Origin: Thermoanaerobaculia bacterium
GTDB taxonomy: Bacteria; Acidobacteriota; Thermoanaerobaculia; Multivoradales; UBA5704
Reading direction: 5' to 3'
Assembly: GCA_035544875.1 (NCBI GenBank)
Contig: DASZZP010000085.1
Span: 316 to 64,315 of the forward strand
Length of the DNA stretch: 64,000 bases
Below are positions 10,412-64,000 of this stretch, in pieces. How positions within the stretch are numbered: position 1 is the first letter of the stretch; the number at the start of each line of letters is the position of its first letter. The notes beneath the pieces were generated by a model. The model had not been told where the DNA came from, made no database searches, and was given only the letters and a program-made list of their open reading frames with translations. Both the position numbers and the translations under genes were made by a program.

Positions 10412-10480
10412 GGTTGGCCCGGAGGAGTCCGAGAACTGCAGGGGACCTGCGGGGCTCACGCGAAGGCATCGATGTACGCC
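10412..10480 (+). repeat. Copy A of a ~70-nt intergenic repeat family (GGTTGGCCCGGAGGAG..ACTGCA..CTGCGGGGC..GTACGCC)
   Basis: By eye it aligns with 20212-20283 and 38302-38371. All three copies are in the same orientation and lie 30-160 nt downstream of a plus-strand stop codon. Confidence 0.6.
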
Positions 10481-20172: not shown

Positions 20173-20211
20173 AGCCAACGCGATCGGTACACGACTCCTC
20201 GCGGTTGGTTT

Positions 20212-20283
20212 GGTTGGCCCGGAGGAGCTCGAGGACTGCACCGGACCCGCGGGGCGGTGCGCAGGCGCGGAGGTACGCCGGGC
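20212..20283 (+). repeat. Copy B of the ~70-nt intergenic repeat family
   Basis: GGTTGGCCCGGAGGAGCTCGAGGACTGCACCGGACCCGCGGGGCGGTGCGCAGGCGCGGAGGTACGCCGGG aligns with copies at 10412 and 38302. It lies 40 nt after the DUF1501 stop. Confidence 0.6.
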
Positions 20284-23026: not shown

Positions 23027-23468
23027 GGCGGGCTCCGTTGCTGGTTGCCCATGCTACAACCACGCCGCGCGCGAACGCGGCGCCTGAATGCTCGAAGGAA
23101 CCACGCTGCTGAAGAACGTGCCCCGCAAGACGCAGCAGGTCACGGTGTCGATGGCGGCGACGACGCCCAAGCCCCGCCTGGTGAAGCTGGCGATCGCGCC
23201 GGCCGGCGAGGAGCCCTTCTCAAAAGCAATGATGCTGCCGAGGGGGACCGCACGAAGGACCTGGACGGATGTACCGTCCAGGTCGATGGCAGGAATTGCC
23301 GAGAGCCTCAGATCGTGCAGATCTTGCGAAAGGAACGTCTCACCCTTGGCGAGATCTTCAAATATTCAATCGATACATGTTCACATCAACTCAGCGGCCG
23401 CCCTGGCCGCGGCTCGATCTGCCTCCGCCGGGACGCGGCGACTGGGGCTTGCCGCCCTCTCCCGGCTT

Positions 23469-23768
23469 CTACGCGCCCTGGCCGGGCTTCTTCTCCCCCT
23501 GGCCGGGTTGGCCGGGCTTCTGCGTCCCCGAGTCCGGCTGGCCGGGCTTCTGCGCCCCCGAGTCCGGTTGGCCGGGCTTCTGCCCCCCCTGGCCGGGTTG
23601 GCCGGGCTTGTGCGCCCCCGGGTCCGGTTGGCCGGGCTTGTGCGCTCCCGGGTCCGGTTGGCCGGGCTTGTGCGCCCCCGGGTCCGGTTGGCCGGGCTTA
23701 CTTCCCTGACCTTGCTGGCCGCCCTGGCCTTGCCCCCCACCCTGGCTATGCTGATCTTTGTCCGACAT
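23469..23768 (-). CDS. Small Gly/Pro/Gln-rich repeat protein (KPGQPDPGAH decapeptide repeats)
   Basis: MSDKDQHSQGGGQGQGGQQGQGS(KPGQPDPGAH)x3 KPGQPGQGGQ KPGQPDSGAQ KPGQPDSGTQ KPGQPGQGEK... It lies next to a CsbD-like gene on the same strand. The ATG at 23768 is preferred over 23816. Confidence 0.55.
   Translation of the reverse strand: MSDKDQHSQGGGQGQGGQQGQGSKPGQPDPGAHKPGQPDPGAHKPGQPDPGAHKPGQPGQGGQKPGQPDSGAQKPGQPDSGTQKPGQPGQGEKKPGQGA
23481..23700. repeat. 30-bp tandem repeat, about 7.3 units
   Basis: Unit GCCGGGCTTNTGCGCCCCCGRGTCCGGTTG. The three units at 23601-23690 are nearly identical and the upstream units are more diverged. It lies inside the repeat-protein CDS. Confidence 0.9.
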
Positions 23769-28715: not shown

Positions 28716-30206
28716 ATGAGAGCGCTCAAAACCGCCATCCTGACCGTGCTCGCCATCGCCGCCGGCGGCGGCTGCCTCTCTTCCCAGCCGCCGCCGCCCG
28801 GCCAGCCCTATGAGCCGCCGCCGCCGGCTTACAACCCGCCGCCCGACTACAACGCGCCGCCGTCCTACCCGCCGGACGGCGCTCCGCCGCCGAATCCGGA
28901 CCAGGGGAGCTACGACCAGGGCTACGGCGACCAGCCCGCGCCCGGGCCGGGCGGCGAGATCGACGTCAGCTTCTTCTATGACTCGCTGGCCCCGTATGGC
29001 GAGTGGGTCGAGAGCGCCGACTACGGCTGGGTCTGGGTGCCGCGCGTGCAGTACGGTTGGCGCCCCTACACCGATGGCCACTGGATCTACACCGAGGACG
29101 GCTGGGCCTGGGTCGCCAACGAGCGCTGGGGTTGGGGTCCCTTCCACTACGGGCGCTGGTACGACGACGACCAGTACGGCTGGGCCTGGGTGCCCGGACC
29201 GGTCTGGGCGCCGGCGTGGGTCTCCTGGCAGGCCGGCGCCGGCTACGTCGGCTGGGCGCCGCTGCCTCCCCGGATCGGCTTTCGCATTGGCATCGGTCTC
29301 GAGCTGGGCGGCCTCGACCTGCGCGTCGCCATCCCGGCGCATTGGTACAGCTTCGTCCCCGAGCACCAGATCCTGGCGCCGCGGGTGGCCGACGTCGTGG
29401 TGCCGCCGGCCCGCAACGTGACGATCATCCACAACACCATCAACATCACCAACTACACCGTGGTCAGCAACCGCGTCGTCAACCGCGGCGTGCCGGTGGA
29501 GCACGTCCAGCAAGTCATCGGCCGCCCCATCCAGCCGCTGCGCATCGCCAGCGTCCCCACGCCGGCCGCCGCGCACGCCGTGGCGGGCAATCAGGTCACC
29601 TTCTTCCGCCCGCCGGTGCGGACGGCGCAGACCGCCCAGGCGCCGCCGCCCATCCGCTCCGTGCGCCCCGAGACCGGAGGGCAGCCGCAGCCGCCGCAGC
29701 GCTCCCAGCCGGCACCGACCCGGCCGTCCGACAACACTCAGGCCCAACCGCCGCGGACCGCCCGCCCCGAGAGCGCCCCGGGCGCCGCGGCGCAAGGGCC
29801 GGCGGCCGCCGCGGCTGTGCCCCGGCCGCCGCGCTACACCCCGCGCGAGACCACGGCCGAGCAGCTCAACCAGCGCCATCAGAGCGAGCAGCAGGCGCTG
29901 CAGGCCTACCAGCAGAGTGAGCGCCAGCGCCTGCAGCAGCTTCACCAGCAGGACCTCGCGAGCCGCCAGGAGCAGGCGCAGCGCGACGCGGCCGCGAAGC
30001 AGCACGCCGACGAGCTGCAGGCCCTGCAGTCCCAGCATCAGCACCAGCAGCAGGCGCTGCAGGGCCGCCAGCAGCGGGAGCGCCAGGCGGTGCAGAGCCA
30101 GCCGCCGGCGAAGCAGCAGCAACCGCCGCCGCAGCGCAAGCCGCCGCCCCCAGCCGACAAGCGGCCGCCGCAGAACCCGCCGCCCGCCGGCCCGCCCGCG
30201 GGTTGA
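28716..30206 (+). CDS. Lipoprotein with Trp-rich WxxGxW/YGWxW repeats (DUF6600-like) and a Gln-rich coiled C-terminus
   Basis: Lipobox ..AIAAGGGC. A Pro-rich linker. Then [69 protein letters not shown]. The tail is rich in Q/R heptads. Confidence 0.7.
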
Positions 30207-38264: not shown

Positions 38265-38301
38265 GCCGCGGCGCCTCATCTCCCGGAAGGATGAAAGCTT
38301 C

Positions 38302-38371
38302 TTTGGCCCGGAGCGGCCTGAGGACCGCCGCAGACCTGCGGGGCTGCGCGGCGGCGCGGAAGTACGCCGGG
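38302..38371 (+). repeat. Copy C of the ~70-nt intergenic repeat family
   Basis: CTTTGGCCCGGAGCGGCCTGAGGACCGCCGCAGACCTGCGGGGCTGCGCGGCGGCGCGGAAGTACGCCGGG. It lies 38 nt after the kinase stop. Confidence 0.55.
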
Positions 38372-38401
38372 TTTCGGGGAGGGTTCGCGGGTCGTGGTGT
38401 A

Positions 38402-38510
38402 GAGCGCCGAAGGCCGCCGGAGCCGGCTGTGTGGTGAAGCGAGCACAGCCGGCTCCGGCGGCCTTCGGCGCTCCGGACCGGCGGCGGGGCGCGGAGGCCT
38501 GCCACCTGGG
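38402..38510 (+). repeat. Palindromic element, copy 1 (perfect 30-bp arms, 12-nt loop, ~38-nt tail)
   Basis: GAGCGCCGAAGGCCGCCGGAGCCGGCTGTG (38402-31) with its exact reverse complement (38444-73). The tail is CGGACCGGCGGCGGGGCGCGGAGGCCTGCC. Confidence 0.85.
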
Positions 38511-38580
38511 CCTGGCGTGATACGGGCTCGACCCACTGAACCGACTTCAGAAATAATGGGACTCGAGGAGGGGATCTCCC

Positions 38581-38883
38581 ATGCGCCATTCTCAGTCGGC
38601 CGAGTCGGTGCGTATCGCGGCGCCCTGCGGCCACGTCGCGGCGGTGAAGCTCCAGGAGGTGCGGCGCCCCGCCGCCGGTTGCGAAGACTGCCTCAAGATC
38701 GGCGGCCGCTGGCTCCACCTGCGGACCTGCCTGAGCTGTGGCCATGTCGGATGCTGCGATTCCTCGCCCAACCGGCACGCGACGAAGCACTTCCACACCA
38801 GCGGCCATCCGATCGTGACCTCCGCCGAGCCCGGCGAGACCTGGATCTGGTGCTACGTCGACGAGCAGGAGCTGGCGCCCTGA
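38581..38883 (+). CDS. UBP-type zinc-finger protein
   Basis: ..GCEDCLKIGGRWLHLRTCLSCGHVGCCDSSPNRHATKHFHTSGHPIV..WIWCY is the classic zf-UBP Cys/His pattern. 100 aa. Confidence 0.85.
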   Translation: MRHSQSAESVRIAAPCGHVAAVKLQEVRRPAAGCEDCLKIGGRWLHLRTCLSCGHVGCCDSSPNRHATKHFHTSGHPIVTSAEPGETWIWCYVDEQELAP

Positions 38884-39020
38884 ACCGAGGCGCGCCGACT
38901 CGACGCCGATCGAAGCCGCGTCAGCCCTGCGCGGCAGGTCTCCGCGCCCCCTTGCCGGTCCCGCAGCCCAGCGATCGCCGCTTGCCGGGCTTGGTCAACT
39001 ACCTAGAGCCTGCATCGCGC

Positions 39021-39133
39021 CAGCCCCGCGCGGCAGGTCTCCGCGCCCCCTCGCCGGTCCGGAGCGCCGAAGGTCGCCGGCCCCGGCCGTGTTCGCTTCA
39101 CCACACGGCCGGGGCCGTCGACCTCCGGCGCTG
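39021..39133 (-). repeat. Palindromic element, copy 2, inverted relative to copy 1
   Basis: Arms at 39062-39092 and 39103-39133 (2 mismatches). The loop is the reverse complement of the copy-1 loop. The tail (39021-39061) matches the reverse complement of the copy-1 tail. An extra tail-only copy lies at 38921-38960. Confidence 0.8.
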
Positions 39134-39165
39134 CTCACCAGCGATCGGTGACTGACGCCTGAACT

Positions 39166-49608: not shown

Positions 49609-50076
49609 TTACCGCTGACCCCGCTCGGATCGCCAATCATGCCGGTCCCTGGCTCGGGCGATGTCGGCGTTTTCGACGCTGTGACCGCGCACCTTGGCCG
49701 GATTCCGAAAGAAGAACTGCGTCACCGTCACCCCCGCGTGCTCGGCGATGGCGCGCCGCAAGGGACCAGGGAGGTACTCGGCCGTTTGCGCTCGGTCAGA
49801 GCGCTGCGCCGGATACCAGATCCAGATGACCAGCTCTCGTTGCCGCGCCGGCGCCGGCGCGAACGGATCCACACGGGCCGTATCCACCCATGCGGTGCTG
49901 ACGCGGCCAACGGCGAACGGGCCCGTGGGGCGTGGCAGCTCCAGCGACGAGTTGTGTTCCAACCAGAGGGACGCGAAGAGGACCCCCACGGCGAGCGCGC
50001 CCACGGCTGCGACGCCCGCCAGGGCCAGGAGCATCTTTTTCAAGGGTCGACGCATATACGCGGCTTCCAGATTCAT
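49609..50076 (-). pseudogene. N-terminal fragment of a lipase/PAF-acetylhydrolase-like alpha/beta hydrolase
   Basis: A TM/signal segment, then ..PRPTGPFAVGRVSTAWVDTARVDPF..RELVIWIWYPA.. is the typical N-terminus of this family. The ORF ends before any GxSxG catalytic core. Confidence 0.45.
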
Positions 50077-50088
50077 CGAGATTCACGA

Positions 50089-50905
50089 TCATGACGCAAA
50101 GTACTTGGCTTCGCAAAGTAGCGCATAGGTGGCGGCCAAGGATCGTGCCGGAAGCGGCCGAAGAGCTGGCCGAGCGGCACCATGTGGGCACGGCCGGCGC
50201 CGCTGCGCAGCTCGCGCGTGAGGCGCTGGATCCCGGTCCCGCGTGGCCACGTCCCAGGCAAAACCGCTGCCGGGTGCGAGATCGGCAGGCAGAGCGGTGC
50301 CGTTGTCGTACTGCGAGGGAGTGTCGAACGATGGCCCGACGTCGCGGGTATAGATGCGCTGCACATGGTAGCCGAGCGCCTGCATGCCGTCGCGAACGAA
50401 CTCGGAAGTGCGGATGAAGGTACGTACGCTTGTCCCTGAACGTCTCGACGTCTTCAGCCTGGAAGTACGAGGCGATGGTCATGTTGCCGTAGAAGGAAAG
50501 ATCGTTGACCGGCGAGCTCTCGTAATCGATGATCTTGTGCACGACGGTGTTTGCCTGCTCGAGACTGGTCACGGGTACGCGGCCGATCGCGAAGTCGGGC
50601 AGGCCGGAACCGCCGCCAGCATGCGGGTACACGGAGTAGGGGTAGTCGGTCGCGATGCCATTGACATAAAAAGGTGCGATGACGCCGGCGTCGCCGAGCA
50701 GGAGGACGTAGCTGGGAGCGACGAGGCAGTGGTCATACTCGTCATCGATCATCTGGCGGATCTGCTCTCTTGTCCGGAAGCCGCCGCTGCCGTCATCGAT
50801 GGTGAGCACCTTAGTGGTGATGCCCTTTTGTCTCTTCCAGGCGGCGAGGGCGTCGCTGGCCAGTTGGAAACTCTGCGGCGCCAGGATGAGGAACTCTTCT
50901 GCCAG
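50089..50905 (-). pseudogene. Truncated, frameshifted peptidase C25 (gingipain-like) fragment
   Basis: ..EEFLILAPQSFQLASDALAAWKRQKGITTKVLTI..YVLLLGDAGVIAPF..TDYPYS..LPDFAIGRVPVTSLEQANTVVHKIIDYE.. then a frameshift near 50400-50420 into ..MQALGYHVQRIYTRD... No N-terminal or C-terminal family regions are present. Confidence 0.55.
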
Positions 50906-50960
50906 GCAGATGCGCTCAATGGGCGATCGAAATATGTATTGGAAGACGGCGCCCGTCAAA

Positions 50961-51827
50961 CTATTGAGGATCAGGCGCGTCGAAACGAACAACCGAATCC
51001 TCGCCGGCTGCGGGAGCGGCGGGATCGGAAACAGGGCTGCGGAGGCCCTGCGGCCCGTTCGGGCCTGAAGTTGGGCGCCGGTCCTCCTTCGTCGACTTGG
51101 TCGGTGGCGAATGGTGCCGCCAAGGGTCGCGGGGCGGAGAGGCCGTGGCTCGAGGCCCATTCTTTGCTCCTTTAGCATTGCGCGGGGAGGCCTCCCGAAG
51201 CCGTGCGAGTCGAACCACTCGCCGCCAATTGGCTTCGCCTCTAACCAGAAACGCAACCGTCAATACCAACGTTGCGGCGAGCAGCGTGAGCCTTACCCAG
51301 CTTACAGTCCGGCCAGAGGATGTGATCGCTGCAAAGGAGCCGAATAAGCCAGCACCTGCCAGACCGAGAAGCGGATTTGCCTTTCGCCAGCCGCCAATCG
51401 CCCTGAGAACATCGGGGTTGACGTCGCCCTCTGCCTTTGCACTGCGGTACATGTTTTCATAGCCTACCACGCCTGCGATATATAGACAGCTAATGGCAAT
51501 AAACCAGTGAGAATCTGTGCCCTTGACGCTGGCCCTAAACAAGCCGAACTGCACAATACCAAGCGTGAACGGGATAACAGTGTCGACTAGGCTCGGGACC
51601 CAAGCGAACTGAGCAACGCCCATCCGGTACTCGTTCCACACGAGTACCGCCACAACTACGGAGGTCGCGATTCGCAGCCAATTGTCGACGTCGAGCAAGT
51701 CGAGTTCAAGATGCCGGTCTACGAGAGTTGCAAGGAGACCAAGCGACACCGCCTGCAAGATACTGATCAGCGTCAAGTAGGTGACGGCGAACTCGTCTCT
51801 CAGGTACTGGGCGTCCATGCGTTTCAT
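50961..51827 (-). CDS. Six-TM membrane protein of unknown function with a disordered basic/Pro-rich tail
   Basis: ATG 51827 follows a strong AGGAGG SD (6-7 nt spacing). There are six hydrophobic helices (e.g. YLTLISILQAVSLGLLATLV, LRIATSVVVAVLVW, VIPFTLGIVQFGLF). It sits in an AT-richer block and is the last gene of the patatin operon. Confidence 0.6.
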   Translation of the reverse strand: MKRMDAQYLRDEFAVTYLTLISILQAVSLGLLATLVDRHLELDLLDVDNWLRIATSVVVAVLVWNEYRMGVAQFAWVPSLVDTVIPFTLGIVQFGLFRASVKGTDSHWFIAISCLYIAGVVGYENMYRSAKAEGDVNPDVLRAIGGWRKANPLLGLAGAGLFGSFAAITSSGRTVSWVRLTLLAATLVLTVAFLVRGEANWRRVVRLARLREASPRNAKGAKNGPRATASPPRDPWRHHSPPTKSTKEDRRPTSGPNGPQGLRSPVSDPAAPAAGEDSVVRFDAPDPQ

Positions 51828-52485: not shown

Positions 52486-54747
52486 CTATGCTCCACGTGG
52501 CGTCCCGCTTGCTGTCGGGTTTCGGCCAGCGGGCAGCGAGCCGCGCGAAGGGCTGGTCACGGGTGCGGTGCTCGCTGGCGCGGCGGGCGGCGCGACGGAA
52601 ACCGGTCCGAGAAGTTTGACGACGTCTCCGATCACGCTCGGATTGTTGGAGCTCGAGCATCCGATGACGTGATTTGGCTCGCGCAGCTGCCTCTCCATCG
52701 CCTCTTGAGCGCTTGCGGAGAGCTGCCAGCCGAGCGGCAGCGGAAGCAGGCCAGTCTCCTTTCCGTCCCGCGCATCGATGCGCTTGCAAAGGCCGATCAC
52801 GAAGAAGTGCTCTTGCGCCGCGGCAACGCGCAGATGGGCGACCGCCAGGCTGCCGCGGGCGTCGCGGGTGTTGAGCAGCGCGCGCGGTGGCGACAGCAAT
52901 TCGTTGAGCATCGGATACGGCTTGGCCGTGGGCTCGAGCTCCGGATCGGAGGAGGAGCGCGGACGAACGGGGTCGGTTTGCGGTGAGTTTCGCAGGTAGA
53001 GCACGTAGACTTTGCGGGCGGCCGCGTCGTGGCCGATGGTTCGCTCGATGACTCGCCGGAGGTCGAGCGCGGTGGCGGCGCCCGAGCTCTCGAAATAGCC
53101 GCCATCGACGACGTGTCCCCTCACCCGCCGCTCGGCGGGGTCTGCCGCTTTCTGGGGCGCCGGCAGGGTCCCCTGCACGGGCGACATGGCGACCTCGGAG
53201 GCGCGCAGCGTTCCCGCGGGACTGATGTAGGTGAAGCGGGCACTGTTATGGAGGGCCGCCTTGAGCAGCAGGTCAGCGCCCAGGATCTGATGCATGTCAT
53301 AGGCGTCCACGAGATCTCCCGCCTGCCACTTCAAGTTGGTGGTCACGATGCGCCGGCCGGTCTCGACATGCGTGCCGTTGAGGAAGAGCGCCGGCACCCT
53401 CGCGTCGGCTCGGCTCCAGAGGCTCAGAAACGGCTGGGTGAAGCGGTCGTTGCCGATGGACTGCTCCCAGGCTGCCGCCCACGCGTCCTCGATGGCACGC
53501 CCGCGGTCGAAGAGCGGGACCGGAAAGGGGAGGAAGCGCTGGGCGAGGTCCGGGGCGATCAGCCTTGCCAGTGGCGGAGAGAGGAAATCGTTACCCAGGA
53601 TCTGGTGTGCGCACTGGTGCAGCCTGCCGCACGGCAGCGGCCCGTGGCGCTCCGCGCTCTCCGCCAAGAGGGCGTCGAACAGACCGGCGCCGAGGCTCCC
53701 TCCTGAGATGCCGCTGATTGCAAACACGTGCCGCGCGAAGGTCGCGTCGCGGTCCTGCAGCTCACCGAGCACGATCGCCGTCCAGTAGGCGGCCCGGATG
53801 CCGCCGCCCTCCGCGGCGACCAGTAAGATCGGTCCGTCTCCAATGCCGCGGTACCAGTCAGCGAAGTACGCCCCAAGCGGGATCCTTGGTGGCTCGCCAT
53901 AGCCGCCGCCGACGAGCCGGGTGGCGTGATTGTCGTTCCAGGCGCTGAAGACGACCGCGGCCAGCAAGGCGAGCAGCAGGACCGGGATCTCGAGGCGCCG
54001 GCTCAGGAAGACGATCCCCGTGCCGAACAGCACCCAGGTCGCCGCGGTGATCAGCAGGATCGGAACCGTCCCGAGGAACTGACCGACCTGGATTGGCCAG
54101 AAGGCAAAGAGCAGCCCCAAGAGCCCGGAGACCGACAGCGACGCTGCCACCGCCCAGCGCGTGCTGGGGGGCAGATCCTGCCAGAGCGGGACGCGGTAGG
54201 AGGGCCCAGGGACTTGTCCTTGGATGCCCCTTCGGAGAAGGCGCCTAAGCAGGGGGCGGCGCACGATGGTGAAGACGAGGAAGGCAAGGGCAAGCGCGAA
54301 ACAGGCAACCGACAGAGCCCGCAGGCGCGGAATCGGCAGCGGGTCGGTGGACTCGAAGTAACCGTGGGCGGCGCGCCAGAGCGCGATTCCGAGCAGCGCG
54401 ATCGCCAACGTGCCGAGCAGCCGTGGTGCCCACTCCCGCAACCAAAGCTGCCTCGGTGAGCCTCCGGGTGCGCCGAGATAAAGAATGACCCGGGCCCAGT
54501 ACCAGCTACTCAGGGCCCATAAGAGGACCGCCAGCAGAAAGAGCACCCAGTGCTGGAGCCCCACCAGGGACCACCAAGGCGAGGTGCCCCACTCCGCAAG
54601 CCGCCGGACCACGTCCTGGCCTTGGGCCAGAAGCAGGAACGAGGCGCCCCCGACCGCCACGATGGCGATGCTCCAGCGACAGGGCTCCAGCACCTGGACG
54701 AGGTCGCGGATGGCGTCTCGAATCGCGCGCAAGATCGTTCCGAGCAT
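52486..54747 (-). CDS. Patatin-like phospholipase with an N-terminal polytopic membrane domain
   Basis: ATG 54747 follows the GGAGGGGG SD. About 300 aa carry about 7 hydrophobic helices. Then comes the oxyanion motif AAEGGGIRAAY, the nucleophile GISGGSLG (GxSxG) and the Asp motif VVDGGYFESSG. Confidence 0.8.
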   Translation of the reverse strand: MLGTILRAIRDAIRDLVQVLEPCRWSIAIVAVGGASFLLLAQGQDVVRRLAEWGTSPWWSLVGLQHWVLFLLAVLLWALSSWYWARVILYLGAPGGSPRQLWLREWAPRLLGTLAIALLGIALWRAAHGYFESTDPLPIPRLRALSVACFALALAFLVFTIVRRPLLRRLLRRGIQGQVPGPSYRVPLWQDLPPSTRWAVAASLSVSGLLGLLFAFWPIQVGQFLGTVPILLITAATWVLFGTGIVFLSRRLEIPVLLLALLAAVVFSAWNDNHATRLVGGGYGEPPRIPLGAYFADWYRGIGDGPILLVAAEGGGIRAAYWTAIVLGELQDRDATFARHVFAISGISGGSLGAGLFDALLAESAERHGPLPCGRLHQCAHQILGNDFLSPPLARLIAPDLAQRFLPFPVPLFDRGRAIEDAWAAAWEQSIGNDRFTQPFLSLWSRADARVPALFLNGTHVETGRRIVTTNLKWQAGDLVDAYDMHQILGADLLLKAALHNSARFTYISPAGTLRASEVAMSPVQGTLPAPQKAADPAERRVRGHVVDGGYFESSGAATALDLRRVIERTIGHDAAARKVYVLYLRNSPQTDPVRPRSSSDPELEPTAKPYPMLNELLSPPRALLNTRDARGSLAVAHLRVAAAQEHFFVIGLCKRIDARDGKETGLLPLPLGWQLSASAQEAMERQLREPNHVIGCSSSNNPSVIGDVVKLLGPVSVAPPAAPASTAPVTSPSRGSLPAGRNPTASGTPRGA

Positions 54748-54970
54748 TCTTCCCCCTCCAGAGCCAGCAGCCATCAGAGAAGACGGACAGACCGAGAGAT
54801 TTCCTAGCACGGCGGCGCGTCAAGGGCCGCCTCCAGAAGCTCGCCCTGGGCGGTCGGCTATCGCCGCTTGCGACGCCACTACATGGTCAACTTTTTTCTT
54901 GATGGATCGTGGTGAGGAGCTCGCAGCAGGAGCTGCGTCAGCTTGCGTCGGCGCGGTCCAGGAGGGTGCC

Positions 54971-55759: not shown

Positions 55760-55806
55760 TGGAGCCGACGGTCAGGATTGAACTGACGACCTGCTGATTA
55801 CGAATC
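55760..55806 (-). other. 3' fragment of tRNA-Thr(CGU): att-site remnant
   Basis: The reverse strand reads GA-TTCGTAA-TCAGC-AGGTC-GTCAG-TTCAATC-CTGAC-CGTCGGC-T-CCA. These are the anticodon loop (CGT), 3' anticodon stem, variable loop, complete T-arm, 3' acceptor strand, discriminator base and CCA. No matching 5' acceptor strand (GCCGACG) or D-arm lies upstream. Confidence 0.75.
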
Positions 55807-55933
55807 TAATCAGGCTGTTTTCAGCACATTTCATCTCGTCTCAGCCTGGTTCGCCGCTGCCAGTAAATAATTGATAAGGCTATGTTTATGGGGTCAGCGC
55901 GTCTCACCGTGTTTCATTTGACTTCTGTCGCCG

Positions 55934-56453: not shown

Positions 56454-57740
56454 ATGCCCCGACTCCACCTCACCAGCCGAGTCCTCCAGGCCCTTTCGAC
56501 CACCCTGGTCCAGGAGAGCTACTCCGACGCCGAGCTCCCCGGATTCCGCGTCCGCGTCAGCCGCACCGGCCACAAATCCTTCGAACTTGTCTACCGCGCG
56601 CCCACCGGCAGCGACGGCCGCCACCCGCAGCGGCGCCTGACCCTCGGCAGCTACCCCGCGCTGAGTCTCGCCGAGGCGCGCGCCCGCGCCCGCGCCGCCA
56701 AGGTCGAGATCGCCCGCGGCCGCGATCCGCAGGGCCCGCTGCCCGAGCCTGCCGCCGCCTTCCATCACCGCCCGTCCCTGCCCGCCGGCCCCCACCCGGA
56801 TCGCCAGGCGCAGCGCGATGCGATCTTCGGCCCGGCGCCGATCCGCGAAGGCTCCTTCGCCGACCTCGCTCTGCACTATCTCGAGCGGCACGCCTGGCGG
56901 TTCAAAAAGCGCACTCGCGACGACGAGGGCATGCTGCGCCGCGACCTGGTTCCCGCCTGGCGCGACTTGCCCGCCGCCGCGATCCGCCGGCGCGACGTGA
57001 GCGAGCTGCTCGACCGCATTGTCGCCCGCGGCGCGGTGATCGCCGCCCGGCGCACCCGCGTCCTGGTCTCCAAGATCTATAACTTTGGCCTCGGCTGCGA
57101 CCTCGTCGAGCACAACCCCACCCTCGGTGTTCCGGCACCCGGCCGTGAGCACCGGCGTGAGCGCTGGCTCACCGATGCCGAGATCTGCGCCCTCTGGCGC
57201 GAGCTCGACCGCCGCGGCTTCGTCCTCGCCTCGGCGTTTCGCGTCATCCTGTTGACCCTGCAGCGTCCCGGCGAGGTCTGTTCGATGCGCTGGCGCGACC
57301 TCGCCGGCCCCTGGTGGACCCTGCCTGGCGAGCGTACCAAGAACGGCAAGTCGCATCGCGTCTATCTCTCGCCCCCGGTGCTCGCCATTCTCGAGCGCCT
57401 GCAGCCGCGCACCGGCCGCTCCGAGTGGGTCTTCGAAAGCCCGAAGCGTCCAGGCCAGCCGATCGAGTTTCTCGGCAAGGTCGGGGGCTCCATCTGCCAT
57501 GCCCTCGGCTTCTCGTTCACCCCGCACGACCTGCGGCGGACCGGTGCCACCCATCTTGGGCGCATGCACTTCCGCGACGAGGACATCGACCGCATTCTCA
57601 ATCACAACCGCCGCGGCGTCAGGGCCGTTTACAACCTCTACGACGGCGATGTCGAGAAGCAGGCCGCTCTCCTCGCCTGGGGCGAGCATGTGGAGGCGAT
57701 CGCCTCCGGCCAGCCGGGCGATCGTCCCCAGGCGGTATAG
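56454..57740 (+). CDS. Tyrosine recombinase, P4-type phage/island integrase (DUF4102 N-terminal domain)
   Basis: ..DAELPGFRVRVSRTGHKSFELVYR..RLTLGSYPALSLAEARARA.. is the DUF4102-type arm-binding domain. The catalytic ..LLTLQRPGEV..(R)..HDLRRTGATHL..ILNH..VRAVYNLY contains the R..HxxR..Y residues. Confidence 0.9.
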   Translation: MPRLHLTSRVLQALSTTLVQESYSDAELPGFRVRVSRTGHKSFELVYRAPTGSDGRHPQRRLTLGSYPALSLAEARARARAAKVEIARGRDPQGPLPEPAAAFHHRPSLPAGPHPDRQAQRDAIFGPAPIREGSFADLALHYLERHAWRFKKRTRDDEGMLRRDLVPAWRDLPAAAIRRRDVSELLDRIVARGAVIAARRTRVLVSKIYNFGLGCDLVEHNPTLGVPAPGREHRRERWLTDAEICALWRELDRRGFVLASAFRVILLTLQRPGEVCSMRWRDLAGPWWTLPGERTKNGKSHRVYLSPPVLAILERLQPRTGRSEWVFESPKRPGQPIEFLGKVGGSICHALGFSFTPHDLRRTGATHLGRMHFRDEDIDRILNHNRRGVRAVYNLYDGDVEKQAALLAWGEHVEAIASGQPGDRPQAV

Positions 57741-57968
57741 GTCAGTTCTACCGGAAAGAGCGGCCGAGCGGCTCGTCAGCCGCCTCAACGACCTCGGCTT
57801 CGCGGTTGAGCCTTCGCCATGCCGCCTGAGACCACCTCTCACCCGACTTCATTCACTTCAAGAACGAACTCCTCATCCCGCCGCAGCCGGCATCGTGCAC
57901 TCGAACGATCCATTACAGCGTGAAGCGCCGGCGACGGGGTGTGCCGGAGGGACCTCAGCCGGGGCGCG

Positions 57969-59204
57969 TCATCTCCCCAGCAGCGTGTCCAGACCGCTTT
58001 TCAAGAGTGCGAAGACTCTCTCGTAAAGGGAATCGTCGCGACAGCCGTCCCTTGGCAGTTCGTCCGGTTTGGTCACGCAGGTTCCCAGCGGTTCCAGCCA
58101 TGGCGAGTCGGCGTTCTTGCAGTTGCAGTCAGAGTTCAGCTCAGGACAGGGACGCATGGCCGAGCCGCTCGGGTTCAGCACTGTGCACGGGTCCGCCTGC
58201 CAAAACCCATACTTGTCCTTCCCGGTGCAGCGCGCATGGCTTGCGAGTGGATGCTTGCCGTTCAGAACGTGGCCGATTTCGTGGGCGAGGAGCGCCGGGT
58301 TGCCTTTGCAGTCGCCGCTCAGCACGATGACTCCGGTTGCCGGATCCCGCTGTCCGCCGCTATCGCCTAAGCTCCGGTCGACCATGAAGACGGGGACCAC
58401 ATGGGCCTTCAAAGCTGGCAGGCACTGCAGCAACATTCTGGTATTCGTCGACGATCTGAGCCCACTATTGGCGCAGGTACAGAGATTTTCTGCCAGGATC
58501 CGGATGCAGCACTTGCCCCAGATATTCACGGCGGCTTTATACTGCAAGTCCCAAAAACGGCCGGTCGCGGGGCGCTGGCCGTAGGCGGCGAACTGCACAG
58601 GCTGGAGTCGGAGGCTATGCTCAATGCTCGCCGCCGCCGATACCCGCCGTCCCTCTAGATCCAGAACCGTTGCCGGCGAAAGGACGGTCGGCGTGGCAGG
58701 CGCGAATTGCAGCGCCAAGCCTCGCACGCCGGACAAAAGACGCCCATCGCTCAGTGCGAGATGACTCTGCTGGAAGGACAAGCTGACGTCGGTTCCAGGC
58801 GCCAAGCTGCCTTCTAGCCTGCCCTTGAAGATTGCGAATCCAGGCGCCTCCTCCTCCGGCCGTTCCTCCAGGTCGGCGGCGGCGCGCGCGGGCGCCGCCT
58901 GATAGACCCGCGCTTCTAGGTCAAAGCTGAGGCTGGCCTCGGCCGATGATTGCATGAGCTTGCCGCCGCCTCGGACGCCAAGAATATAGATGCCGCTTTC
59001 CTCGTCACGCGTCCCGTCGGGGCGAGAGCTGTAGAGGCGGAACCATCGCATTTCCACTCCCGCCTCTGCGCCATCTGGAGAGAGTGTCTTCACGAGCAGC
59101 GCCAGCTCTCCTCTGACCGGCGCACCCTCTGGTGCGGCGTCCAGCGCCACCCTCCCTAAGAGCTTCAGCAGCAGAGAAGTGTTGACGGCCAGCTCAGGGA
59201 GCAT
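57969..59204 (-). CDS. Unknown protein with a Cys-rich C-terminal HExxH (metzincin-like spacing) metallopeptidase module
   Basis: ATG 59204 follows AAGGAGGG (5 nt) and overlaps the upstream gene by 11 nt. The C-terminus is ..GDCKGNPALLAHEIGHVLNGKHP..CTGKDKYGFWQADPCTVLNPSG..CPELNSDCNCKN..GTCV..GC. That is HExxHxxxxxH plus about 11 Cys in the last ~160 aa. I do not recognise the N-terminal ~250 aa. Confidence 0.65.
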   Translation of the reverse strand: MLPELAVNTSLLLKLLGRVALDAAPEGAPVRGELALLVKTLSPDGAEAGVEMRWFRLYSSRPDGTRDEESGIYILGVRGGGKLMQSSAEASLSFDLEARVYQAAPARAAADLEERPEEEAPGFAIFKGRLEGSLAPGTDVSLSFQQSHLALSDGRLLSGVRGLALQFAPATPTVLSPATVLDLEGRRVSAAASIEHSLRLQPVQFAAYGQRPATGRFWDLQYKAAVNIWGKCCIRILAENLCTCANSGLRSSTNTRMLLQCLPALKAHVVPVFMVDRSLGDSGGQRDPATGVIVLSGDCKGNPALLAHEIGHVLNGKHPLASHARCTGKDKYGFWQADPCTVLNPSGSAMRPCPELNSDCNCKNADSPWLEPLGTCVTKPDELPRDGCRDDSLYERVFALLKSGLDTLLGR

Positions 59205-60312
59205 CGAGCCCTCCTTTCGCATATCGGCGAGGTGACGTGGATCCGCGTTCACCGCCTACTCCGGCAGTGGCTCTTGACTTTGCCGGTTGGAAGGACGTGG
59301 GGAAGCAGTCCATCCCCTGCCCATTGTCATCGGGTTGCGGCCATGGATGCGGCAGATAGAGACCCTTGATGATGTCGCCAAGCTCTTGCCTGTCGGGCTC
59401 TGAGAGCAGCTCGAAAAACCAGCGGAAGTCCTGGTCGGGCTGTGCAGTACCGGTATCCACCGGCCACTCGAGGGGGTTGTTGTCGCAGAGATTCGCCACT
59501 GTGATCTCGACCCACCGCCCCGTCCCGGGGGCAAGGCAAAGCCTTTTCGCGCCGCCTCCGGAAAGTGGCTTTGCGATCAGGGTTGCCTCAGCCACTTTTT
59601 TCACGTCGAGGATCACCTCGTTTGACATCTCCTCGATCACCACGTTTTCCTTGCAGAGATACTTCGGGAACACCCAAGTCCCCTGGTACCCGCCAGTGTA
59701 CAACCTGCCTTTTTCGATCACGAACTGCGCTAGCACGCTCTTCGGCGGCTTCCAGGACGTCGCATCGGGGTCGATAGAGTAGTAACCGTCAACGATCGGC
59801 CCCATGTCGGCGAGTCTGGCGACATCGCCGATCGTCAAGTTGCTCGGACCGCCCTTCACGGATAGGGTGAGCCTGGTCTGGACCAGCTTCTTCTGCTCAG
59901 CTGCTACCGCTTGCGGCGACCCCGAGGGATGAAAGGCGCTGCGATGTGGCGGTGGAGGCCTTCTCGAAGCATCTATTGGATCGCCCCCCGCATCCCCTCG
60001 ATCCCCTTCCCACCCCTCCGGGGGGGAAGGGGACGCCCCCTCCCCTCGCGCACGGCCCAGTTTCGTTCTAGGCTTCCGCCCCAGGTCCCAGATGCCCTGG
60101 GTCGACTTCGGTACCTTCGGCATCCCGATTACGTCCCTGAGGTTGAACCTGACGAAAGCGCGGTGCCGGTTTAAGCCTTTCGAGTCAAGTCCCGAGCTTT
60201 GACTTTCGCCGTCCGGGATGACCACCATCACCTGCTTCGGCTCATTCTTGAAAGGCCTGTCCGGGACGAAAGCACAGCCGCCGGTGAAGCGGACCCGCAA
60301 GTTGAAGGTCAT
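59194..60312 (-). CDS. Hypothetical protein, middle gene of the CHAT operon
   Basis: ATG 60312 follows AAGGAGAGG and forms an ATGA overlap with the CHAT gene stop. 372 aa. I recognise no motif. It contains a Gly/Pro/Arg-rich low-complexity insert (~59930-60075). Confidence 0.6.
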   Translation of the reverse strand: MTFNLRVRFTGGCAFVPDRPFKNEPKQVMVVIPDGESQSSGLDSKGLNRHRAFVRFNLRDVIGMPKVPKSTQGIWDLGRKPRTKLGRARGEGASPSPPEGWEGDRGDAGGDPIDASRRPPPPHRSAFHPSGSPQAVAAEQKKLVQTRLTLSVKGGPSNLTIGDVARLADMGPIVDGYYSIDPDATSWKPPKSVLAQFVIEKGRLYTGGYQGTWVFPKYLCKENVVIEEMSNEVILDVKKVAEATLIAKPLSGGGAKRLCLAPGTGRWVEITVANLCDNNPLEWPVDTGTAQPDQDFRWFFELLSEPDRQELGDIIKGLYLPHPWPQPDDNGQGMDCFPTSFQPAKSRATAGVGGERGSTSPRRYAKGGLDAP

Positions 60313-63300
60313 TTCCTCTCCTTTCCTGACTCAATGCCTTGGAATCCGCCGACTACCTGGAAGGGTGCCCAGGAGGCGGGGGAGCGCAGGGCGGGATCGG
60401 CGCTCGCCAAGAGCGCAAGCTGCGCGGAGCGCAGGGCCTTGGCGGCGTCCTGGCTGGCGAGGAAGCTTTTGTGAAAGACCGGGAGGAGCTGCCGCGCCGC
60501 CTCGTCGTCCACCGCCCAGAGGGTCGCGACGACCGCTCCAGCGCCTGCCGTGAGGAAACTTCGCGCAAGGCCGGAGACTCCGGTGGCGCGGGCGTCGCGG
60601 GCTCCGAGAGTGTCGCAGGCGTCGAGAACGACTAGGCGCAGCCTGGAGAAGCGGAGAGCCGCCACCTCGCGGCCGAGGAGGACGCCGTCGTCGGCGGGCG
60701 CCGCGCCGGAAGCGACGAGCAGGTAAGAGCGCTGCGGGTCGCGGGCGTTGTTGACGGCATGGCCGGCGAAGTGGAAGACCTCGCAGCGGTCGAGCGCCCG
60801 CAGGACATCGGTGCGGGTGGCCGACTTCCCCAAGAGGATCGTGGCATGCGGATAGAGATGCCCGACCTCCTTGACTTCCGTCTCGGCCCCGGGCAGGTCG
60901 GGGAGTGCGGCGGACAGATCGCGGCTCGAGGTGGGTTTCCCCACCAGCAGGGCGTGCCAGCTCCCGGCTGCCCTGCGCTGTCGAGACTGCGGCCGGGAAG
61001 CCAAGTAGACCCCTGCCGCGGGCGCCAAGCTGATTGTCCGCTCCTCCACCAGGAAGCGGGAGGCCGCCGGATCGCGGAGGGCGGCGAAGGGTATTTCATT
61101 CAAGCTCTTGTCGGGCACGATCACCAGTGCCACGTCGCGAGGCAGCCGACGCACCGGCTCGGGTATCAATGCCTCCCAGAGGTCTCGCCCCAGCGAATCG
61201 AGCTGGGCGGCTGGAGCGCCGCGACGGGCAGCTTCGGCGAAGGCTCGCACCTCTTCTTCGAGGCGGCGAGTCTCGACGGTCCGATCCGTGAACAGGATGC
61301 CGCTGTTTCTCACAATCCAGGTGAGCAAGTGCTCGCGCACCCAGGCATATTCGACGATGGCGACGTCTTGCGGCAGCCAGCGCAGTCGCCCCGCTAGCGG
61401 CGCCGCTCCTACGTTTCTCGGGCTCGCCGCGGGGCCCCGCGGCGAGGCGAGCGCGATCTGCCATGGGAGATCGCGGGCCCTTTCCGAAAGCTCCAGGCCG
61501 AGATCGGGCCGGCCCCTACGCAGAGCCTGCAGCAGGATCATCTCGTCGAAGAGCTCCTGAGCCGTTTCGGCGAACGAAGCCACCAGCGTGCCGTCGACCA
61601 GCGAAGCGCTCTCGCTTTCATACAGCGCGATGGCAGCGCGCAGGTCCGCCTCCGCCGCGGCGTCGTCCTGGGCGGCCAGGCTCGACCGGGCGCAGCCGAG
61701 GTATGCCGCTGCCGTGTTGAGGGCAAGCCCATGCTGCGTGTAGTAGCGCAAGGCTCCGGCAAAGCGGGCCGCGGCCTCGGGGTAGCGGCGCTGGTGCCGG
61801 AGAGCCTCGCCCTCTGCGAGGGTGATGTCGGCCTCGACCCGCCGCCGTATCTCGCCTGCTTCGCTCGCTGCGTTCCACGCAGCCGCGTCGCGCAGGTCCG
61901 CGAAGGCGAGTGGCGGCTGGTCGAGGGCAAGCTGGATCTTACTCCGCCACAACAGGGCCTCAGCGAGCATACGCGGCTGCCGAGCGCTAAGCGCCACACC
62001 CACGCCTTCGTCCTGCAGCACCTTGGCCGCTGCCGCCTGCCCTCCCCGGAGCGCCGCATTGGCGGCCTCCCAGAGCGCCGTGTGGAGGCGGATCGAGGAA
62101 GGGAACTCGCTCAGCTCGGCCAGGGCGCGGTGCCGATGCTCCCAAGACGGCTCGCCCTGTCCGAGAAGGCCCAGAGCCTCCGCCATCAGCTCCTCGACGG
62201 CCCCTTGGTTCTCGGTTTCCCGGGCCTTCGCAAACGCCGCGGCAGCGGCGCCGTAGTGGTGCAGAGCCTCGCCGAATCGGCCCGCCCGGACTGCCGTCCA
62301 TCCCAGCCCCCATTCGATCCTGCCCACCAGGGCCACGCACTGGAGCGGCATCACGCGGCGCAAGGCCTCATCGAATTGCCGCACCGCAAGGTCGATGTGC
62401 CCGCGGTAGCTTTCGACGCCGGCGAGAGAGGCGGCAGCCCACAGGGCGACCGGGCTTCCTCCCCGCCTCAGGGCCTTCCCGGCCTCCATAAGCAGAGGGG
62501 CGGCCGGACCGATCTCGAGCTTCCGGAAATGCGCGCTCCCCAGGCGGTAGAGGCGGTGGCCGCGCGCCAGGGCAGCCAGGGCACCGGCTCCCGCGGGCGA
62601 CCACTCGGCCTGGTCGATGGCGGCAACACTCCTGGCGACGGTCTCCTCGCCGGTGAGCGCGGCGAGGGCATCGCCGATGGCGCGCGCGGTGGCGAGACGA
62701 TCCCGGGCTTCGCGGTTCCGACCTGCCGCTGCGAGGTCTCCCCACTCGCCCAACACCTCCTCGACGGCGTGCTCGCGGGCGGCTTGGGGAAGAATCTCGA
62801 CCAGGGCGCGGAGGGCCGTGGCGTCTCCTGGGAGCGCTGCCGTGCGCAGCGCTGCCACACGGGCGCTCCACAACTCCGCGCGCACCGGCTGGCGCAAGCG
62901 CCGCAGGTGCTCTCGCGCCTCGAGCGCCCAGCCCGAGAAGGGATCCCGTCGCAGATAGAGCTCCCAGGCCTGCCGCGCTTCCCCCCTGAGATAGAGCTTT
63001 TCCAGGATCAAGGCGCGATTGAAGAGAGCCTCGGGTGCGGCCGGACTCGGGGCGGCCGCCGCCTCGCTGGCGCCCAGGGCGAGCACCAGGTCCCATGGCT
63101 CTCCGGTGCTGTCGGCACACAGAAGGTACGCGGCAGCGAGATCGCTTGCCAGCGCGCGGTCGTGCGGAGCCAGAGCCGCCGCGATGGCGAGGTCGCGGAC
63201 GGCGTGCTCGACGCTCCCGCGCCGGTCGCTGGTGAGCAGATAGGTCATTCCGCGCGCATGCAGCATCCCGGGCGTGGGAGGAGAGGCCACGCGCACGCGG

Positions 63301-63587
63301 ATCGCTCGGACCACGTCCGCGAGCTCCTTCCACTCGGAAGAGTGAGCGGGCGGCAGGGGCGAGCAGGCGAGGTGCCCTGGAAGGCCGGCGCCGCCTGCAG
63401 CGCGCCGGCATGGAGCGTAGGGAAAGCCTCCGCTCAACCGCGCCTCGATCAGCCGGCGGTTGCCCACTGCGGAGACGAGAGCAGGAAGGTCCGCCCGCTG
63501 CCGCGTGGCATCACCCCCGCAAGCAAGGAGGATGGCGTAGGACGCGGCAGCCAGAATCGGCGACGGCAGAGCCTGAGACTTCCGCAT
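60309..63587 (-). CDS. TPR-repeat + CHAT (caspase-like) protease, predicted lipoprotein
   Basis: The N-terminus MRKSQALPSPILAAASYAILLACGGD is lipobox-like. About 700 aa of TPR-like helical repeats follow. The C-terminal CHAT domain is ..LVIVPDKSLNEIPFAAL..FHFAGHAV (His)..LVVLDACDT (Cys)..ATLWAVDDEAA. Confidence 0.85.
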   Translation of the reverse strand: MRKSQALPSPILAAASYAILLACGGDATRQRADLPALVSAVGNRRLIEARLSGGFPYAPCRRAAGGAGLPGHLACSPLPPAHSSEWKELADVVRAIRVRVASPPTPGMLHARGMTYLLTSDRRGSVEHAVRDLAIAAALAPHDRALASDLAAAYLLCADSTGEPWDLVLALGASEAAAAPSPAAPEALFNRALILEKLYLRGEARQAWELYLRRDPFSGWALEAREHLRRLRQPVRAELWSARVAALRTAALPGDATALRALVEILPQAAREHAVEEVLGEWGDLAAAGRNREARDRLATARAIGDALAALTGEETVARSVAAIDQAEWSPAGAGALAALARGHRLYRLGSAHFRKLEIGPAAPLLMEAGKALRRGGSPVALWAAASLAGVESYRGHIDLAVRQFDEALRRVMPLQCVALVGRIEWGLGWTAVRAGRFGEALHHYGAAAAAFAKARETENQGAVEELMAEALGLLGQGEPSWEHRHRALAELSEFPSSIRLHTALWEAANAALRGGQAAAAKVLQDEGVGVALSARQPRMLAEALLWRSKIQLALDQPPLAFADLRDAAAWNAASEAGEIRRRVEADITLAEGEALRHQRRYPEAAARFAGALRYYTQHGLALNTAAAYLGCARSSLAAQDDAAAEADLRAAIALYESESASLVDGTLVASFAETAQELFDEMILLQALRRGRPDLGLELSERARDLPWQIALASPRGPAASPRNVGAAPLAGRLRWLPQDVAIVEYAWVREHLLTWIVRNSGILFTDRTVETRRLEEEVRAFAEAARRGAPAAQLDSLGRDLWEALIPEPVRRLPRDVALVIVPDKSLNEIPFAALRDPAASRFLVEERTISLAPAAGVYLASRPQSRQRRAAGSWHALLVGKPTSSRDLSAALPDLPGAETEVKEVGHLYPHATILLGKSATRTDVLRALDRCEVFHFAGHAVNNARDPQRSYLLVASGAAPADDGVLLGREVAALRFSRLRLVVLDACDTLGARDARATGVSGLARSFLTAGAGAVVATLWAVDDEAARQLLPVFHKSFLASQDAAKALRSAQLALLASADPALRSPASWAPFQVVGGFQGIESGKERK

Positions 63588-63905
63588 GGTCTTCGCGCTG
63601 AGCGACCCGAGGGAGACCCCGACCTCCGCTCTCTCGGCGGTCCCGACGCACTTCGCTCACTTTCGTACGAGCGCGTTCATTCTACCAGGTCAGGCAGAGG
63701 CGAGGCGCCAGCACGCCGCTGCAAGTGGCTCCGCCGGAAAGCGTGACCAGCCGCCGGACACTTCCCTCCCTATCGTTGATAGACGGACAATCTACAGGTT
63801 TTCCGGGTGGAAGGCGGCGGCGAGTCACGGCACGCCGAAGGTACAATGCTCTGTGTGTGAACCAGCAGACCTTCGCGGTCACCGCGGTCCGCATCGCGAA
63901 GGCTC

Positions 63906-64000
63906 GCGTCTACCTCTCGCCTCCCGTGCTCGCCATTCTCGAGCGCCTGCAGCCGCGCACCGGCCGCTCCGAGTGGGTCTTCGAAAGCCCGAAGCGTCCG
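63906..64000 (+). pseudogene. 5'-truncated second copy of the integrase gene, running off the window
   Basis: 63926-63999 is identical to 57378-57451 (74 nt), with weaker similarity from about 63906. It translates ..RVYLSPPVLAILERLQPRTGRSEWVFESPKRP, matching integrase residues from about 303. Only about 310 bp lie upstream before the CHAT gene, too few to encode the N-terminal 300 aa. Confidence 0.8.

Follow-up and report, generated by a model that had tools for sequence, protein, structure and literature searches.

We describe here a conserved, so far undescribed module of three genes from a 64,000-nt stretch of Thermoanaerobaculia DNA (contig DASZZP010000085.1; the whole stretch is called the window below). 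The genes encode a TPR-CHAT protease (gene 1), a protein of an apparently new family (gene 2), and a protein in which a β-barrel is predicted to be joined to a metzincin-like zinc protease domain (gene 3). We read the trio, with a probability of roughly one half, as a three-component proteolytic module in which a signal would trigger a protease cascade with a swappable peptidase, most likely with a role in conflict or stress.

The three genes lie on the minus strand at 60309-63587, 59194-60312, and 57969-59204. A sequence-only reading of the window had described them as overlapping without any intergenic space, and the open reading frame (ORF) list gives identical coordinates. At the junction of genes 1 and 2, GGAAAGGAGAGGAAATGA, the two genes overlap in ATGA behind the Shine-Dalgarno sequence AAGGAGAGG, and gene 3 starts with an ATG at 59204, 11 nt within gene 2, preceded by AAGGAGGG; both junctions had been read in this way before, and the sequence agrees. 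A GTG at 59252 was also considered as the start of gene 3 and was rejected, as the closest homologue, P0010, aligns from the ATG (P numbers denote representative homologous proteins, and L numbers denote related loci). The GC content is 60 to 63% in genes 2 and 3, 71% in gene 1 and the neighboring integrase gene, and 68% in the whole window. Scanning positions 57600 to 64000 for promoters and terminators gave nothing above shuffled controls.

The arrangement is conserved. A word-indexed search of 5.8 billion proteins returned two relatives of gene 2 and one of gene 3, and these first relatives were all found in the order CHAT, gene 2, gene 3. Scanning one genome per species revealed the same trio in three Thermoanaerobaculia metagenome-assembled genomes (MAGs; L005, L006, and L009), a metagenome DNA scan with the gene 2 profile added 27 further loci, and a protein search with the gene 2 alignment gave five new members; a low-complexity repeat had probably dominated the word index. 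Synteny of the trio extends over about 30 independent loci, which come from Thermoanaerobaculia MAGs and metagenome contigs, and all loci were searched locally with hidden Markov models. CHAT adjoins gene 2 in every locus with enough flanking sequence (CHAT was seen beside gene 2 in the window, L001-L006, L009-L012, L014-L017, L019, L021-L026, L028, L029, L033, L034, and L036), and at least 17 loci have a gene-3-like gene after gene 2. The order is either CHAT-2-3 or, in L011, L014, and L015, 2-3-CHAT, while L012 carries tandem modules. The spacers are 0 to 45 nt long, or the genes overlap. One protein of 722 aa, P0011, is a natural fusion of gene 2 (residues 1 to 295) and gene 3 (residues 345 to 721), which argues that the two gene products act together.

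In loci with a divergent gene 2, the third slot can hold a Peptidase_C14 protein (L026, E = 1.3e-18; L021, E = 5e-6; L029; and L035), and elsewhere it holds large HExxH proteins (L022, with HELGH, and L027, with HEYGH and a weak DUF6782 match). The occupant of this slot is always some peptidase, be it metzincin-like, a C14 caspase, or another HExxH protein. Because the third gene is replaced in the divergent loci, CHAT and gene 2 form the invariant core of the module, with the peptidase being exchangeable. It had been set beforehand that genes 2 and 3 should not belong to families with housekeeping roles and that their homologues should be syntenic with CHAT genes; database searches gave no housekeeping match for either gene, and the homologues are almost always adjacent to a CHAT gene.

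Gene 1 (1,092 aa) has a C-terminal CHAT domain at residues 799 to 1080 (nt 60348-61193), which Pfam PF12770 matches with an E value of 1.1e-61 and 209 bits (cutoff, 24). The motifs FHFAGHA and VVLDACDT contain the catalytic residues, His943 (in AGHA, nt 60759-60761) and Cys991 (in ACDT, nt 60615-60617), and this dyad is kept in 16 of 16 aligned full-length family members. The N terminus, MRKSQALPSPILAAASYAILLAC (residues 1 to 23), begins with positive charges, continues into a hydrophobic stretch, and contains a lipobox-like LLAC, and an equivalent hydrophobic segment after basic residues is present in all 15 relatives with a complete N terminus. Because the basic residues followed by a hydrophobic segment fit the positive-inside rule, we take this region as a probable export signal or signal anchor, and the protein looks exported. 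The intact His/Cys dyad given in the sequence-only reading is upheld, and the lipoprotein-type signal is probable. The reading's claim of a TPR-like array stands at the level of the family, for which the profile matches designed TPR proteins clearly (E = 3e-14), while the match of the single protein is weak (TPR_12, E = 0.012). When a profile of 16 gene 1 relatives was compared with the PDB, the best match was DdvA (8ROT/8RW5; E = 3.7e-19), with Csx29 at about 5e-6 and separase at about 6e-3. The structure paper confirms that 8ROT is DdvA (PMC11506125), and by sequence profile DdvA is the closest solved relative of gene 1. No match to a zf-HC2 (zinc-binding anti-sigma [ZAS]) domain was found in gene 1 with Pfam.

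DdvA is a transmembrane anti-sigma factor of Myxococcus, whose periplasmic TPR-CHAT part was proposed to sense a phage cue and to serve as its own site-1 protease (PMC11506125). In five module loci, L005, L009/L025, L023, L024, and L026, a sigma-like protein of about 260 aa is encoded beside the module; these proteins are 44 to 58% identical among the loci and match Sigma70 regions 2 and 4 weakly. Except in L023, whose contig breaks off directly after the sigma gene, a ZAS anti-sigma protein of about 320 to 350 aa is encoded as well; it combines a zf-HC2 domain and a single transmembrane helix with an extracytoplasmic domain of about 220 aa. The pair lies upstream of the module and is transcribed divergently in L005, L009/L025, L024, and L026 (L005:1187-2986, L009:1260-3127, L024:267-2419, and L026:732-2642), and the L023 sigma gene lies downstream of gene 3 (L023:6378-7154). 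By analogy, the pair looks like DdvA/DdvS split into separate genes.

These neighbors bring in a different explanation, a DdvA-type signaling system in which CHAT would be the site-1 protease for the transmembrane anti-sigma factor and genes 2 and 3 would be a cytoplasmic output of the regulon, with the copy in the window being orphaned or decaying. It is attractive in that DdvA is the best solved relative of gene 1, that a sigma-like gene and a ZAS anti-sigma gene adjoin the module in four of the regions (the sigma gene alone in L023), and that it would solve a compartment paradox, since signal peptides are missing from genes 2 and 3; the gene 2 copy in the window is, moreover, disrupted by a repeat and a read-through, and the window has no sigma/anti-sigma pair. 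We nevertheless consider it unlikely. Most loci, about 20, carry the trio without sigma and anti-sigma genes, so it is the three genes that form the conserved core; the tight coupling and the invariable adjacency of CHAT and gene 2 argue for a direct physical relationship; and the gene 3 domain, with its cysteines and its fusions elsewhere, points outside the cytoplasm.

For gene 3 (411 aa), an AlphaFold2 model built from a 33-sequence alignment reached a predicted local distance difference test (pLDDT) score of 89.3 and a predicted TM-score (pTM) of 0.88. In the model, the N-terminal domain (residues 1 to about 205; nt 58590-59204) consists of beta structure throughout, its roughly eight long strands lying between residues 10 and 205, and has a low-confidence loop at residues 105 to 122, and the C-terminal domain (residues about 206 to 411) is alpha/beta, with an active-site helix at 305 to 313 and a final helix at 390 to 408. 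Foldseek searches of the PDB matched the C-terminal domain to PAPP-A (E = 3e-5) and ADAM-8 (TM-score, 0.50) and further to snake-venom metalloproteinases, archaemetzincin, and karilysin; the N-terminal domain matched barrels of eight strands, namely, PsbO, OmpX, NspA (TM-score, 0.62), OmpW, and LolA. BFVD gave no useful structural match.

The sequence HEIGHVLNGKH (nt 58251-58283) has the metzincin-like HExxHxxxxxH spacing that had been pointed out from the sequence alone, and the ligands are conserved: across 33 relatives, H308, E309, and H312 are invariant and H318 is kept in at least 90%. P319, C232, and C362 are nearly invariant as well, and a Gly is found at position +8 in most members and at +7 in some. 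The candidate Met-turn segment, TV[L/M]EP, has Leu in the window protein and in most members and Met in only a few, and because of this we call the catalytic domain metzincin-like, short of a proven metzincin. The Cys-rich C-terminal module of the sequence-only reading is real, with 13 cysteines, all after residue 231. With Pfam, the Reprolysin and M10 scores of gene 3 stayed below every family's threshold, and the PDB sequence matches to fragilysin/BFT-3, MPII, and matrix metalloproteinases were weak and cover the motif only. Compared with metzincin zymogens (fragilysin/BFT-3, MPII, the pappalysins PAPP-A and ulilysin, and the adamalysins), gene 3 shares the spacing of the third His, the combination of an N-terminal domain of about 200 aa with a catalytic domain of about 200 aa, and the richness in cysteine, and all Foldseek/PDB matches of its C-terminal domain are metzincins. 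It differs from them in having no signal peptide, in the Gly at +8 rather than +7, in the Met-turn position that is mostly Leu, and in an N-terminal PsbO/OmpX-like eight-stranded barrel in the place of a known pro-domain.

An exhaustive HMMER profile search found 180 representative relatives of gene 3, 75 of them at E ≤ 1e-10. The catalytic domain alone occurs as the C-terminal module of eCIS_core (DUF4157) proteins, as seen in 10 of 10 that were checked (L008:7044-8540, P0066, P0088, P0094, P0099, P0104, P0105, P0117, P0150, and P0158), and these carriers usually also have OmpA-type or PG_binding_1 peptidoglycan-binding domains. The L008 gene lies inside a contractile-injection-system cluster of a gammaproteobacterial MAG. 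This domain company suggests that the gene 3 domain in eCIS_core proteins is a toxin-like module acting on the cell envelope. The trio proteins share the catalytic domain with the eCIS_core proteins but have neither eCIS_core nor peptidoglycan-binding domains, and injection-system genes are lacking in the trio loci. Some gene 3 homologues form a separate subfamily, set apart by about 430 additional conserved residues at the C terminus that have no Pfam match (P0013, P0015, P0022, P0025, P0037, P0043, P0048, P0055, P0059, P0077, P0129, and L007:7503-9368); at the one extension locus seen, L007 (Acidimicrobiales), there is no CHAT or gene 2 neighbor.

It is doubtful, on balance, that the trio is an antagonistic toxin module, in which gene 3 would be a secreted or delivered metalloprotease toxin, gene 2 its chaperone, adaptor, or immunity protein, and CHAT the protease that matures gene 3, much as fragipain matures fragilysin. 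The eCIS_core fusions and the injection-system locus L008 would suit such a role, as would the 13 cysteines, and the best PDB sequence matches of gene 3, fragilysin/BFT-3 and MPII, have a pro-domain and a catalytic domain of similar size; the variability of the third slot between loci also recalls polymorphic toxin systems. However, neither secretion-system genes nor a signal peptide or a delivery domain (PAAR, RHS, or eCIS_core) was seen in the trio loci, a C14 caspase as the alternative toxin would be more typical of intracellular cascades, and toxin-immunity pairs are rarely fused, yet P0011 fuses genes 2 and 3.

Gene 2 encodes 372 aa in the window, where the family length is about 280 to 300 aa. 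The family has invariant residues G12, H51, G144, C218, P222, D237, F238, P263, P265, and C278 (P0002 numbering) and a conserved Pro-rich C-terminal segment. Neither the window protein nor the 32-sequence family gave a match in Pfam, NCBIfam, PADLOC, PHROGs, or PDB sequences; the best PDB sequence match of the 32-sequence profile was 3c19, at an E value of 0.087 only, and hhalign found no relation between gene 2 and gene 3. The earlier impression of a protein without a recognizable motif therefore extends to database and profile searches, and we assign gene 2, from these sequence comparisons, to a new family.

Its constant position next to CHAT would also suit a role as the executioner of the system, that is, as a gasdermin-like or otherwise membrane-active protein of about 280 aa released through cleavage by CHAT and gene 3. 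The size of the protein, its beta-rich fold in a low-confidence model (pLDDT 35), and the Pro-rich C-terminal segment can be cited for this, and caspase-like proteases with repeat domains, one or several, are common in gasdermin operons. We think this very improbable, as neither gene 2 of the window nor its 32 relatives matched Pfam Gasdermin or PADLOC (the coverage of gasdermins by PADLOC being unconfirmed), and there is neither a PDB sequence match nor a usable structural model.

The additional length of gene 2 in the window has two sources, both absent from all homologues, on top of a family sequence of about 285 aa. The first is a dispersed repeat, inserted in frame at 59881-60075 (minus strand) and 65 codons long, that was recognized in alignments with the homologues. 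The second is a C-terminal read-through of about 26 to 31 codons at 59194-59290, which runs through the former spacer; the homologues stop near ...CFPxSF or ...RPAKG, and the window copy has no stop at that position. The 11-nt overlap of genes 2 and 3 is derived at this locus, because the read-through created it. With these changes, the copy of gene 2 in the window may be impaired or non-working.

The inserted peptide, which reads ...GRARGEGASPSPPEGWEGDRGDAGGDPIDASRRPPPPHRSAF..., is 65 to 88% identical to stretches within BirA, FolP, NuoD, a metallophosphoesterase, and a methyltransferase. It lies in the middle of BirA and FolP, at the N terminus of NuoD, and at the C termini of the metallophosphoesterase and the methyltransferase; the first four carriers come from Thermoanaerobaculia MAGs and the methyltransferase from Joint Genome Institute (JGI) metagenomes. 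In DNA comparisons, the core of the repeat (59908-60045) matches three metagenome contigs (L037:7888-8027, L038:2327-2466, and L039:1775-1914) at the 3' end of their methyltransferase gene, with 86% identity over 140 nt. The repeat is about 140 to 195 nt long and GC-rich, and it is read in the same frame in all the unrelated coding sequences found. It contains a GC-rich hairpin; RNA folding of both strands was not better than that of shuffled sequences (z = -1.08), no Rfam family matched, and no further copies were found in the window or in the other fetched loci. Rickettsia palindromic elements (RPEs) are inserted in-frame into protein genes in a similar way. Like them, the present element is a short dispersed repeat translated in one frame inside unrelated, otherwise conserved proteins; in contrast to them, it belongs to the phylum Acidobacteriota and is very GC-rich. 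These features suggest an RPE-like element of Thermoanaerobaculia that colonizes coding sequences, those of essential genes included. The repeat also points to a Thermoanaerobaculia genome as the source of the window.

Returning to the proteolytic module, we propose the following course of events. Gene 1 would be a membrane-anchored or lipoprotein TPR-CHAT with its bulk facing the periplasm, as in DdvA; gene 2 would be a family-specific obligatory partner protein; and gene 3 would be the effector peptidase, here in the form of a barrel joined to a metzincin-like zinc protease. The TPR array would sense a protein cue at the envelope, and the cue would switch on the CHAT dyad. The target that CHAT would then cleave may be gene 2, a part of gene 3 (the barrel, the 105-122 loop, or the linker), or, where the relatives have five genes, the anti-sigma factor in its periplasmic domain, and this cleavage would set free the second peptidase, which would provide the executing activity. 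The export of gene 1, the cleavage events, the order of the cascade, and the biological role are what we infer from the sequences.

The sequence-only reading had already suggested a proteolytic activation cascade or a toxin-maturation module, and had offered an envelope or extracellular site as an alternative to a defense system. The cascade gains from the P0011 fusion, from the peptidase that always fills the third slot, and from the SAVED-CHAT precedent, and it loses from topology, since cleavage of leaderless partners by CHAT is awkward. The envelope alternative is the one that we favor: gene 1 looks exported, DdvA is its closest relative, and the gene 3 domain is fused elsewhere to peptidoglycan-binding domains. 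The Cys-rich nature of that domain, together with those fusions, likewise suggests a place outside the cytoplasm.

Several observations weigh against the cascade that we propose. The N termini of genes 2 and 3 are conserved and have no signal peptide, that of gene 3 being structured in the model as well as conserved; an exported CHAT and its leaderless partners would therefore be made in different compartments. The AlphaFold2 model of gene 2, built from a three-sequence alignment, had the pLDDT of 35 given above and was not used, and the role of this gene is a guess; the window copy, in addition, carries the 65-aa foreign insertion. The Met-turn position of gene 3 is mostly Leu. No sigma or anti-sigma homologue is present in the window, PADLOC gave no match in the window or in the family scans, and the neighbors in the window and in the other loci are non-defense genes.

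A bolder form of the proposal would be an envelope protease cascade of a new kind, in which an exported caspase-like sensor acts on two leaderless partners, a new-fold protein and a barrel-metzincin zymogen. We hold this form to be improbable. If it were true, the partners would exit by an unrecognized route, perhaps through the OmpX/PsbO-like barrel of gene 3, or else there would be a new way to pass a proteolytic signal across the inner membrane, and the peptidase would be a swappable executioner in defense or kin conflict.

In the window, the module is bracketed by integrase sequences. An intact tyrosine integrase of the P4-like arm-binding type lies at 56454-57740 on the plus strand and has the Pfam domains Arm-DNA-bind_3, Phage_int_M, and Phage_integrase. 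Positions 63904-63999 repeat 57356-57451 of this gene directly and with 97% identity. In this second copy (63904-64000, plus strand), homology begins abruptly at 63904, with the first 902 nt absent, and after 96 nt this 5'-truncated copy runs off the window. An intact integrase and a truncated copy are what the sequence-only reading had described. The repeated segment could result from tandem islands or from recombination within the integrase. No tRNA was found in the window by ARAGORN or by Rfam at the gathering score. A narrow scan of 59 nt matched 55763-55808 (minus strand) to positions 27 to 71 of the Rfam tRNA model, with anticodon CGU, 18.7 bits, and an E value of 0.037, and the match spans the anticodon loop to the acceptor end. 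The proposed tRNA-Thr attachment (att) remnant is plausible as a tRNA-Thr(CGU)-like 3' fragment on this match and forms the weakest part of the observation; no second copy of the fragment and no flanking att direct repeats were found in the window, the right end lying beyond it.

At the 35 other loci, no integrase was seen, and among viral contigs, no relatives of gene 2 or gene 3 were found. Integrase-linked cargo as a property of the family was rejected because the other loci have no integrase, and a phage origin was dropped because there are neither viral-contig relatives nor a useful BFVD match. What is left of the exchangeable island cargo proposed earlier is the integrase-flanked situation of the window locus.

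The other genes around the module in the window are ordinary and include a MacB/FtsX-type permease, an alpha/beta hydrolase, a DUF4082 protein, and a C25 peptidase. The last of these (49796-51256, minus strand; Peptidase_C25, E = 7e-26, covering the first part of the model only) is of the gingipain type, clan CD, and is thus another caspase-fold protease less than 7 kb from the module. To the left of the tRNA fragment, an ORF of 774 aa (52486-54810, minus strand) has several N-terminal hydrophobic segments and the patatin-like GxSxG sequence GISGGSLGAG and gave no Pfam, NCBIfam, or PHROG match. Tandem coding-type repeats are found at 23449-23729 and 29877-30128, one with at least seven copies of a 30-nt unit and the other with a 33-nt unit rich in CAG/CAGCAG (Gln-rich). 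A repeat-rich region beside the DUF4082 gene (38300-39161) has 135-nt inverted arms (82% complementary), a 64-nt direct repeat, and a 45-nt element; two more copies of the latter, at 10411-10455 and 20211-20255, are 76 to 87% identical, and the element may represent another family of dispersed repeats.

Caspase-like CHAT proteases increasingly turn out to act as switches in bacterial immunity; examples are Craspase, SAVED-CHAT/PCaspase, gasdermin activation, and DdvA. To our knowledge, almost all the characterized examples are cytoplasmic. The module described here is a compact, conserved, and genetically separable system, with a predicted exported TPR-CHAT, an obligatory partner, and a variable peptidase slot, and it opens two questions to direct experiment, namely, which substrates a periplasmic CHAT cleaves and by what path the signal gets to an effector. 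Pfam, NCBIfam, PADLOC, and PHROGs contain neither the gene 2 family nor the family of barrel-metzincin proteins represented by gene 3, and both could be defined from the present alignments.

Three known systems can be compared with the module. Like DdvA, gene 1 has a large TPR-CHAT part with a His-Cys dyad, and the segment ahead of it, at the N terminus, is predicted to be a membrane segment as in DdvA; five module loci have a sigma gene like those of the extracytoplasmic function (ECF) class nearby and, in all but L023, a ZAS anti-sigma gene. It differs from DdvA in having no cytoplasmic ZAS domain, the relatives encoding the anti-sigma factor separately, and the window has no such pair at all. 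The DdvA loci, for their part, have no equivalents of genes 2 and 3 and regulate CRISPR systems and CBASS, the antiphage signaling systems based on cyclic oligonucleotides.

Type III-E Craspase, too, has a TPR-CHAT with two small partners of unknown fold, Csx30 and Csx31, and sometimes a sigma factor (RpoE). In contrast to our module, it has Cas7-11 and a CRISPR array, its partners are unrelated, and Csx29 is cytoplasmic and activated by RNA. Csx29 and the gasdermin-activating proteases, which the sequence-only reading had named as precedents, are more distant analogues than DdvA and the PCaspase cascade; the profile match to Csx29 is at about 5e-6. The absence of Cas7-11 and gasdermin partners, noted at the same time, is in line with our searches, as no CRISPR-like array was found among the window repeats and there was no PADLOC or Pfam Gasdermin match.

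In the type III-B CRISPR/CBASS of Haliangium ochraceum, SAVED-CHAT was shown experimentally to cleave and activate a second protease, PCaspase, and the system includes an inhibitor, PCi, and a sigma factor (bioRxiv 10.1101/2023.06.23.546230). As in the module, CHAT is accompanied there by another peptidase, by PCi as a small partner, and by a sigma factor, and in four module relatives the third slot is taken by a C14 caspase. In Haliangium, a cytoplasmic SAVED domain that binds cyclic triadenylate (cA3) serves as the sensor, whereas here that part would fall to a TPR array predicted to be exported; the module comes with neither a cyclase nor CRISPR genes, gene 2 bears no relation to PCi, and the effector is a zinc protease. 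Taken by analogy, the logic of the module is most plausibly related to that of DdvA and of SAVED-CHAT/PCaspase.

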